Shown here piece by piece: positions 57,605 to 57,988 of a stretch of DNA of 64,000 bases. The position numbers and the translations under genes are program-made. The notes under the pieces are model-generated. The model was not told the DNA's origin. It saw nothing but the letters and a program-made list of their open reading frames with translations, and searched no databases. This DNA is from Candidatus Limnocylindrales bacterium (GTDB lineage: Bacteria; Chloroflexota; Limnocylindria; Limnocylindrales; CSP1-4), in assembly GCA_036392215.1 (NCBI GenBank), contig DASVYJ010000027.1, positions 15,637 to 79,636 on the forward strand, written 5' to 3'. Position 1 is the stretch's first letter. Each line of letters starts with the position of its first letter.

Positions 57605-57988
57605 ATGGAGTTCGAGGCCCGAAGGCTGCGCGTCCAGCTGCCCTGCGGGACCGACACGCTGATCGAATGCGTGTTCGCCACCTGTCGCCTGCCGTCGGTG
57701 ATCACCTGCCTCTACCGCACCCCGTTCTGCCCGACGTTCATCTCGCGGTGCGGCGGCTACCGGTCGATCATCTGCGACTTCGGGACGAACCGGACGTTCA
57801 CGCCGACCTGTGGCGGGACCATCTGGTACACGGAGACGCTGACCGAGACGGGGACGGAGACGATCCGCGAGGTGACCCAGTTCGAGGTCGACGAGCTGCC
57901 CCTGCTGCGCGAGCAGCTGGAGGGCCAGCTCAAGGAGGTCATCGCCGCGCAGGAGCAGGTGGCGAAGCGGAACAAGACGAGCCGCTAG
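57605..57988 (+). CDS. Small Cys/Thr-rich protein (127 aa): candidate RiPP precursor-like peptide
   Basis: GGAGGT RBS 8 nt upstream. Eight Cys at 14, 22, 27, 35, 42, 49, 57, 69 (spacing 5-12). Each is preceded by Ser/Thr. Then a Thr-rich TETLTETGTET segment and a C-terminal amphipathic helix LPLLREQLEGQLKEVIAAQEQV. Confidence 0.55.
   Translation: MEFEARRLRVQLPCGTDTLIECVFATCRLPSVITCLYRTPFCPTFISRCGGYRSIICDFGTNRTFTPTCGGTIWYTETLTETGTETIREVTQFEVDELPLLREQLEGQLKEVIAAQEQVAKRNKTSR

Follow-up and report, generated by a model that had tools for sequence, protein, structure and literature searches.

What does a small, cysteine-rich ORF encode when it lies a short distance upstream of a LanC-like gene in a Chloroflexota genome, and is its product a substrate of the enzymes encoded next to it? 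We addressed this question for a 127-aa ORF (Table 1) within a 64,000-nt stretch of DNA from a 'Candidatus Limnocylindrales' bacterium; this whole stretch is referred to as the window below. A first-pass annotation, made from the letters and their ORF translations, had pointed out the quasi-periodic Cys residues and a C-terminal amphipathic helix, and had proposed a lanthipeptide-type precursor with a follower peptide or, alternatively, a metal-binding mini-protein. Our analysis suggests that the small gene probably encodes the substrate of dehydration and cyclisation by the other two products of a conserved three-gene cassette, which would together act as a split lanthipeptide-type synthetase.

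The small Cys-rich ORF is a real gene, and its family is conserved. GC contents at its codon positions 1/2/3 were 0.55/0.49/0.97, with a position-3 value above that of the neighbouring enzyme genes, a signature that in a genome of ~75% GC identifies a translated gene. The same codon-position signature was absent from the 183-aa alternative frame at 57472–58023, which we rejected, and the antisense ORFs were rejected on codon-position GC as well. The ribosome-binding site that the first-pass annotation had called good is present, and relatives carry GAGGAGG in the same place. Conservation in homologs, which had been suggested as a check, was found in 49 proteins with identities down to 30%; one of these, identical in sequence, is a database entry from a 'Candidatus Limnocylindrales' (Chloroflexota) MAG, and the other 48 are metagenomic. 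A search with the family profile retrieved 126 cluster representatives (E ≤ 1e-3) among 1.84 billion proteins. Scans of the small ORF against Pfam, NCBIfam and PADLOC gave no match, and no second precursor copy was found within the window. As had been read from the translation, the protein contains eight Cys, a TETLTETGTET stretch (residues 76–86) and the C-terminal LPLLREQLEGQLKEV. The Cys are residues 14, 22, 27, 35, 42, 49, 57 and 69, at spacings of 8, 5, 8, 7, 7, 8 and 12, and 23 Ser/Thr accompany them.

Table 1. Features of the cassette and its upstream region (window coordinates)
Feature	Position	Strand	Remarks
SARP-like regulator (BTAD domain), true start probably near 56694	56436..57467	+	Pfam BTAD 1.4e-13
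Three GGTGACG heptamers, candidate SARP box	57463..57513	+	in phase, 11 and 33 nt apart
GGAGG ribosome-binding site	57591..57595	+	9 nt 5' of ATG, read directly
Putative precursor gene, 127 aa	57605..57988	+	ATG 57605 to TAG 57988; GC3 0.97; 49 homologs
N-terminal motif, residues 2-15 (EFEARRLRVQLPCG), leader-like strand	57608..57649	+	mean column identity 0.91
Cys/Ser/Thr-rich core, residues 14-69, eight Cys, five C-x3-[S/T] units	57644..57811	+	AF2 pLDDT <50
Thr/Glu-rich linker, residues 70-94, including TETLTETGTET	57812..57886	+	least conserved segment
C-terminal amphipathic helix, residues 95-126, follower-like	57887..57982	+	AF2 helix 95-126
Putative stand-alone phospho-Ser/Thr lyase (LxmY/HopA1 fold) with extra N-terminal domain (gene 2)	58010..59224	+	
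N-terminal domain aa 1-113, Hanks-type Ser/Thr kinase ~125-400, LanC cyclase ~460-810 (gene 3)	59229..61691	+	

Conservation along the protein was strongly uneven. Column identity was highest in the N-terminal motif FEARxLRVQLPCG (0.91 over residues 2–15, and still 0.88 in the most distant members) and in the helix segment LPxLREQLEGQLKEV (residues 95–112; 0.84 and 0.76), lower in the Cys-rich core (0.70 and 0.54) and lowest in the Thr/Glu linker (0.50 and 0.33). In the alignment of close homologs, F3, R6, L8, R9, V10, P13 and C14 were invariant at the N-terminus, as were L98, L105, E106, Q108, L109 and A115 in the helix. Distant relatives had wholly changed core length, Cys number and sequence, with both ends persisting. 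Across the family representatives the number of Cys ranged from 2 to 19 (median 8) at widely varying positions, and the precursors were about 100–220 aa long, many of them with extended, charged coiled-coil tails. The C-terminal helix was common to the entire precursor superfamily, and the N-terminal motif came in two flavours, MxF[EQR][AS][KR][KR]LRVQLPCG and, in a second clade, MxFK[VF]x[DE]LM[IV]x[VI]LP, both of which match F-x4-L-x-[VI]-x-[LV]-P. When the small protein was modelled with AF2 from its homolog alignment (model pLDDT 43), residues 1–94 remained below a pLDDT of 50, and the sole predicted element was the helix at residues 95–126, with a pLDDT of about 60. Conserved ends around a variable Cys/Ser/Thr core that is predicted to be disordered are the pattern of a RiPP precursor. 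The Cys core and the C-terminal helix of the earlier account thus stand, but the near-invariant motif at residues 2–15 had been missed.

In one sub-family of precursors, found upstream of position 6001 at loci L042, L051, L054, L047, L069 and L060, the proline-rich core, CDAGCSDSPQSAVCPPPPP...PPCGVPSNFF, was nearly identical. Its hosts are Cupriavidus, Ralstonia, Nocardia, Streptomyces, Paeniglutamicibacter and a cyanobacterial MAG, a distribution that points to horizontal transfer of a single conserved product.

Within the core of the window's clade, we observed a distinct register of Cys and hydroxyl residues. Using 91 representatives with at most 50% identity and both end motifs present, Ser or Thr was found four residues after 54% of core Cys, compared with 16% in composition-preserving shuffles (z = 33). 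In the same set, Ser/Thr were depleted at +1 and +2 and moderately enriched at −1 to −4, where their distance to the next Cys was spread over 1–4 residues; the repeat unit is therefore best written as C-x-(F/G)-x-[S/T]. Five of the eight Cys of the window ORF fit this unit (C14-T18, C22-T26, C27-S31, C35-T39 and C57-T61), and the hydroxyl residues of these five were kept, with Ser and Thr interchanged, in 32–37 of the 37 aligned homologs. Cys-Cys spacings in the family peaked at 5, 7 and 8. The first-pass annotation had instead described a Ser/Thr before each Cys. Every inter-Cys segment does contain at least one Ser/Thr, but this is unremarkable at the Ser/Thr content of the core (estimated chance about 0.35), and C-x3-[S/T] is the better description of the repeat. 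Such a recurring register points to small Cys(i)-to-Dhx(i+4) rings, many per precursor, as the basic unit. Against this stands that known lanthipeptides less commonly have the Cys N-terminal to the Dhx with which it pairs. The second-clade precursors showed another register, unlike the C-x3-[S/T] unit: at L040 (5222–5962) and L031 (5159–5977), the cores are very long and of low complexity, with up to about 30 Cys, for example as (C-T-x-x)n runs or as CASHPxL[ST]P repeats.

Downstream of the small ORF, a gene for a 404-aa protein (gene 2) follows after 21 nt and a gene for an 820-aa protein (gene 3) after a further 4 nt. The first-pass annotation had placed the small ORF between a SARP activator and LanC-like enzymes; the SARP gene is indeed located upstream, but only one of the downstream genes is LanC-like, and the intervening gene encodes a protein with a predicted lyase fold. 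This 404-aa protein had no sequence match in Pfam, NCBIfam, PADLOC or the PDB. Its AF2 model, built from a 47-sequence alignment, reached a pLDDT of 90.4, and Foldseek searches against the PDB returned as the top match chain B (LxmY) of the lexapeptide dehydratase LxmKY (E 4e-7), followed by HopA1, the lyase domains of ThurKC, CuvL, SalKC and PneKC, and the phosphothreonine lyases OspF and SpvC. We can therefore state with high confidence that the gene 2 model folds like LxmY, HopA1 and the LanKC lyase domains. Five residues were invariant in the gene 2 family, K228, Y230, K259, R269 and Y276, spaced 0, +2, +31, +41 and +48. In SpvC, the residues K104, H106, K136, R148 and Y158 are spaced 0, +2, +32, +44 and +54, and in CaoY, R187, K219, R229 and Y236 are spaced 0, +32, +42 and +49; mutagenesis has shown these catalytic residues to be required for elimination (PMC9486802, PMC10604976). 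The conserved residues of gene 2 probably correspond to the catalytic Lys/Arg/Tyr of these lyases, a correspondence based on spacing and fold rather than on residue-level superposition. A point against the assignment is that the gene 2 family has Tyr where canonical lyases have the His of the K-x-H pair. Gene 2 also has about 115 additional N-terminal residues, a domain for which we found no RRE sequence signal and no meaningful match in a PDB sequence search.

Gene 3 combines a kinase with a LanC cyclase and lacks a lyase domain, the lyase being encoded separately. Pfam assigned Pkinase to aa 151–329 (2e-10) and LANC_like to aa 527–809, with a score for APH on the kinase of only 5e-5; the PADLOC matches reflected generic kinase similarity. 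Among solved structures, the LanC part aligned best with LanCL1, LanCL2 and GCR2. Its catalytic His lies in VAHGWAG and its first zinc Cys in WCNG, whereas CCG replaces the CHG of LanC and LanCL proteins. The kinase residues K157, E174, H251, D253, N258, D271 and G273 were invariant among 53 full-length members, and so were the LanC residues H633, C694, C737 and C738, for which it should be noted that the set had been pre-selected for WCxG and CCG and that almost all full-length neighbours had both. Judged by these alignments, the catalytic and zinc-binding residues of both domains are intact, with a predicted three-Cys zinc site (WCxG...CCG). Such a site is of the type seen in the highly active cyclase ProcM. 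The family alignment further revealed a conserved extra domain at residues 1–113. A PDB sequence search with this domain returned nothing meaningful, and Pfam scans of individual members gave sub-threshold ThcOx matches in 5 of 24 (best 4.6e-4) and PqqD in one of 24. An hhalign comparison with a PqqD mini-profile, built from PqqD sequences in PDB alignments, gave a colinear alignment of 76 columns, though with a weak E of 0.032. The N-terminal domain of gene 3 may be RRE-like.

Globally, the three genes travel together. The order precursor, lyase-fold protein, kinase-LanC recurred with unrelated flanks in other Chloroflexota (L001), in a 31%-identical relative (L003/L004), in Solirubrobacterales (L007/L008) and in an actinomycete MAG (L009). 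In a scan of one genome per species, the 404-aa lyase family was present in 324 species genomes from Chloroflexota, Actinomycetota, Acidobacteriota, Nitrospirota, Proteobacteria, Bacillota and Cyanobacteria, with genera including Micromonospora, Actinomadura, Kribbella, Streptomyces, Nocardia, Conexibacter, Nitrospira, Cupriavidus and Ralstonia as well as Bacillus cereus-group strains. A kinase-LanC homolog was found in 88 of the 89 lyase loci that we fetched, and in at least 69 of 79 loci, by a crude rule, the lyase gene was immediately preceded by a Cys-rich ORF with a C-terminal helix of the L-x2-L-[RK]-x2-L type. The small gene thus adjoins, and is co-conserved with, genes for putative dehydration and cyclisation enzymes, the generic mark of a LanA gene. 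Two further arrangements are typical of RiPP clusters. Tandem, divergent precursor pairs precede one lyase/kinase-LanC pair at L009 (6948–7980), L017 (4924–5977) and L018 (4930–5962), and in Cupriavidus sp. amp6 (L042, 1332–10524) the cassette is accompanied by genes for a full-length LanB dehydratase and two oxygenases, one a Cupin_8 protein and the other of the 2OG-Fe(II) type. The Cupriavidus locus is thus a hybrid that unites two distinct dehydration systems. In Microbispora sp. NBC_01389 (L005, 8001–9808), the lyase gene is followed by only a 212-aa LANC_like fragment, with the kinase absent from the called genes, and the small ORF upstream has a degenerate N-terminal motif; this copy may be decaying.

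Taken with the conserved cassette, the lyase-fold protein and the intact kinase-LanC, the earlier proposal of a lanthipeptide-type precursor beside its enzymes gains strong support from context. From the same observations we infer a series of chemical steps, a ring pattern and the parts of the precursor that are recognised. The kinase domain of the 820-aa protein would phosphorylate Ser/Thr of the disordered core, the separate 404-aa lyase of the LxmY/HopA1 fold would then remove the phosphate to give Dha/Dhb, and core Cys would finally be added to these by the zinc-dependent LanC domain, through its three-Cys 'CCG' site, to form up to about eight thioether rings. Both conserved ends would serve as docking elements. 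RREs bind strand-like motifs of this sort, and here the N-terminal motif would probably be bound by related N-terminal domains of both enzymes. The C-terminal helix could provide a second, follower-type contact, or else act as an oligomerisation or solubility element.

The proposal of a C-terminal follower needs to be qualified. The conserved helix is real, and its presence across the whole superfamily is compatible with a follower-type recognition element, but a pure follower model of the bottromycin kind misfits, given that conservation is higher still over the N-terminal 13 residues, which resemble a leader strand. That the helix is the main recognition element appears doubtful to us. In sequence (ILREQ/REQLEGQL), the helix does not match the LxLQ type of class III leader that it had been suggested to resemble.

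A different possibility is that the enzymes modify the product of the small ORF, but that it is never trimmed, so that the functional product would be a ~13-kDa thioether-stapled protein with a C-terminal coiled coil, for example a structural, surface-active or oligomerising 'lanthi-protein' whose ends are functional parts rather than tags. We consider this unlikely, although several observations point in its direction: the precursors are long, many with charged coiled-coil tails, their termini are conserved across phyla and could be parts of the mature protein, and no conserved protease or exporter was found beside the cassette among the loci compared. The missing protease is not diagnostic, because class III/IV lanthipeptide clusters often lack one within the cluster (PMC8960859). 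A hypervariable core between conserved ends is, by contrast, the classic pattern of a precursor, and the AF2 confidence for the helix was moderate.

The chemistry might also end differently. The LanC domain could behave like a LanCL protein and add a small thiol (glutathione, mycothiol or bacillithiol) to the dehydroamino acids made by kinase and lyase, the product of the small ORF then being a thiol-decorated or regulatory substrate that is not internally cyclised. This seems very improbable to us, given a substrate that is itself rich in Cys, in a regular register with Ser/Thr, and a zinc site of the three-Cys ProcM type. The structural alignment with LanCL1, LanCL2 and GCR2 speaks for it, all the more as LanCL1 is a glutathione S-transferase acting on Dha/Dhb (PDB 8d0v, 8czk; PMC9934072), but class IV LanC domains also group with LanCL (PMC7268733). 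Finally, a metal-binding Cys-rich mini-protein of the metallothionein or zinc-ribbon kind, next to the enzymes for regulatory reasons or by coincidence, was the alternative of the first-pass annotation, and eight Cys within 56 residues and a neighbouring gene with a His-rich N-terminus would suit it, but we regard it as most improbable of all, since CxxC and CxC pairs are absent from the window ORF (spacings of 1–4, which include both, make up 52 of the 985 Cys-Cys spacings in the family), Cys number and positions vary widely, AF2 predicts no fold, and the linkage to lyase and kinase-LanC is strict in many phyla.

GGTGACG heptamers start at 57463, 57474 and 57507, from the end of the BTAD gene towards the small ORF, and GTGACG-type repeats are kept at spacings of 11, 22 or 33 nt at L001, L002, L010 and L013. 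Heptamer repeats in 11-nt phase are the arrangement bound by SARPs. With a BTAD regulator and direct repeats in this phase upstream of the presumed target, both elements of a SARP promoter are present, and the GGTGACG repeats are likely a SARP operator, through which the upstream SARP-like regulator would probably activate the operon. This layer is confined to close relatives: outside the cassette, a homologous BTAD gene upstream of the precursor was shared by seven close loci only. A scan for promoter consensus sequences gave no match, and the terminator search gave a single terminator-like match, on the opposite strand.

Lanthipeptide classes are defined by the architecture of their synthetases. 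The presumed logic of the cassette is that of classes III–V, but a separate HopA1-type lyase combined with a Pkinase-LanC fusion carrying a CCG zinc site matches none of the described classes I–VI. With class IV LanL enzymes such as VenL, the cassette shares a Hanks-type Ser/Thr kinase fused to a zinc-type LanC, the presumed logic of phosphorylation followed by elimination and a minimal cluster free of proteases. Of the class IV cyclase residues, H633, C694 and C737 are conserved, whereas the third ligand is C738 instead of His, giving Cys-Cys-Cys (CCG) here rather than Cys-Cys-His. Furthermore, class IV enzymes have an N-terminal, fused lyase of the OspF type in place of a separate HopA1/LxmY-type protein, and compared with class IV the precursor of the window's type is 2–4 times longer and has a conserved C-terminal helix, its enzyme bearing the extra N-terminal domain. 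LanL was the best NCBIfam match of gene 3, but it covered positions 188–805 only and scored 171.6 bits against a cut-off of 650; on this score and the lack of a fused lyase, class IV was rejected.

Class V enzymes (LanK/LanY, as in LxmKY and CaoKY) likewise have a stand-alone lyase of the HopA1 fold, LxmY being the top structural match of gene 2, and CaoY shares the K/R...K...R...Y catalytic spacing (PMC9486802). Gene 2 differs in its N-terminal extension of about 115 residues, and its lyase is not recognised by Pfam HopA1 (PF17914). Class V lyases act alongside an APH-type LanK and either LanX or no LanC, whereas here a kinase of the Pkinase family is fused to a canonical LanC. We rejected class V on the kinase type and the presence of LanC. 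Class III LanKC enzymes (ThurKC, CuvL, SalKC and PneKC) have a cyclase without zinc ligands and a fused lyase, and their substrates carry S-x2-S-x3-C (labionin) instead of C-x3-[S/T]; with zinc ligands present, a separate lyase and an NCBIfam LanKC score of 88 bits against a cut-off of 575, this class was rejected too. The streptococcal LanKCb of class VI represents another kind of system, of miniature size.

Outside the lanthipeptides, two RiPP groups offer partial parallels. Bottromycin-type follower RiPPs also have a conserved C-terminal extension after the core, but their precursors lack an N-terminal leader, whereas the N-terminal motif is the most conserved part here, and their enzymology is unrelated. 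In ranthipeptides such as freyrasin (PapA), repeated C-x3-D units are found in which a radical SAM enzyme links Cys to Asp. The repeated register of Cys(i) and an acceptor at i+4 is alike and suggests serial, small thioether staples, with Asp and a radical SAM enzyme there as opposed to Ser/Thr and a kinase, lyase and LanC here.

Full-text literature searches turned up no account of the cassette or of either the precursor or the lyase family, and NCBIfam of June 2026 held no model for the precursor or lyase family; two of the three cassette proteins are without a Pfam or NCBIfam model. If the chemistry is confirmed, the cassette could count as a new lanthipeptide class. We propose, tentatively, that it may be the founding example of such a class, in which a split synthetase would act on tripartite precursors (leader strand, C-x3-S/T repeat core and follower helix) and introduce serial, reverse-oriented Cys(i)-Dhx(i+4) thioether staples, with a related docking domain on each enzyme and a product that is perhaps retained as a stapled small protein. 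Confirmation of the chemistry would give access to many hypervariable peptides with multiple staples, as one large family, and offer a natural example of combined leader and follower recognition. Rule-based mining would merge the kinase-LanC protein into class IV and overlook the long precursors. Indeed, a survey of 815 class IV clusters with a length limit of 120 aa found only 401 precursors (PMC7268733), a gap to which this precursor family may well contribute. Cultured hosts that could serve as an experimental entry include Micromonospora, Streptomyces, Kribbella, Cupriavidus, Ralstonia and the Bacillus cereus group.

Further upstream in the window, a gene for a large protein (52449–55283), in which a Zn-dependent phospholipase C (PLC) domain is weakly recognised, precedes a gene at 55283–56545 that has no Pfam match and a strikingly His-rich N-terminus (MSDERHEHHEHGHHEHGHHEHHEHDCHDEHHHHCHGGG). 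In an Anaerolinea MAG (L038, about 2900–5000), the cassette likewise has homologs of both genes upstream of it; this is the one Anaerolinea locus with which the PLC-like/493-aa pair is shared, so that the two may form an accessory module. No other LanC gene was found in the rest of the window, and the region from 11262 to 47194 is ordinary chromosome, encoding a NiFe hydrogenase large subunit and HypF, pyruvate:ferredoxin oxidoreductase, histidine kinases, an acetyl-CoA hydrolase/transferase and acetyl-CoA synthetase.
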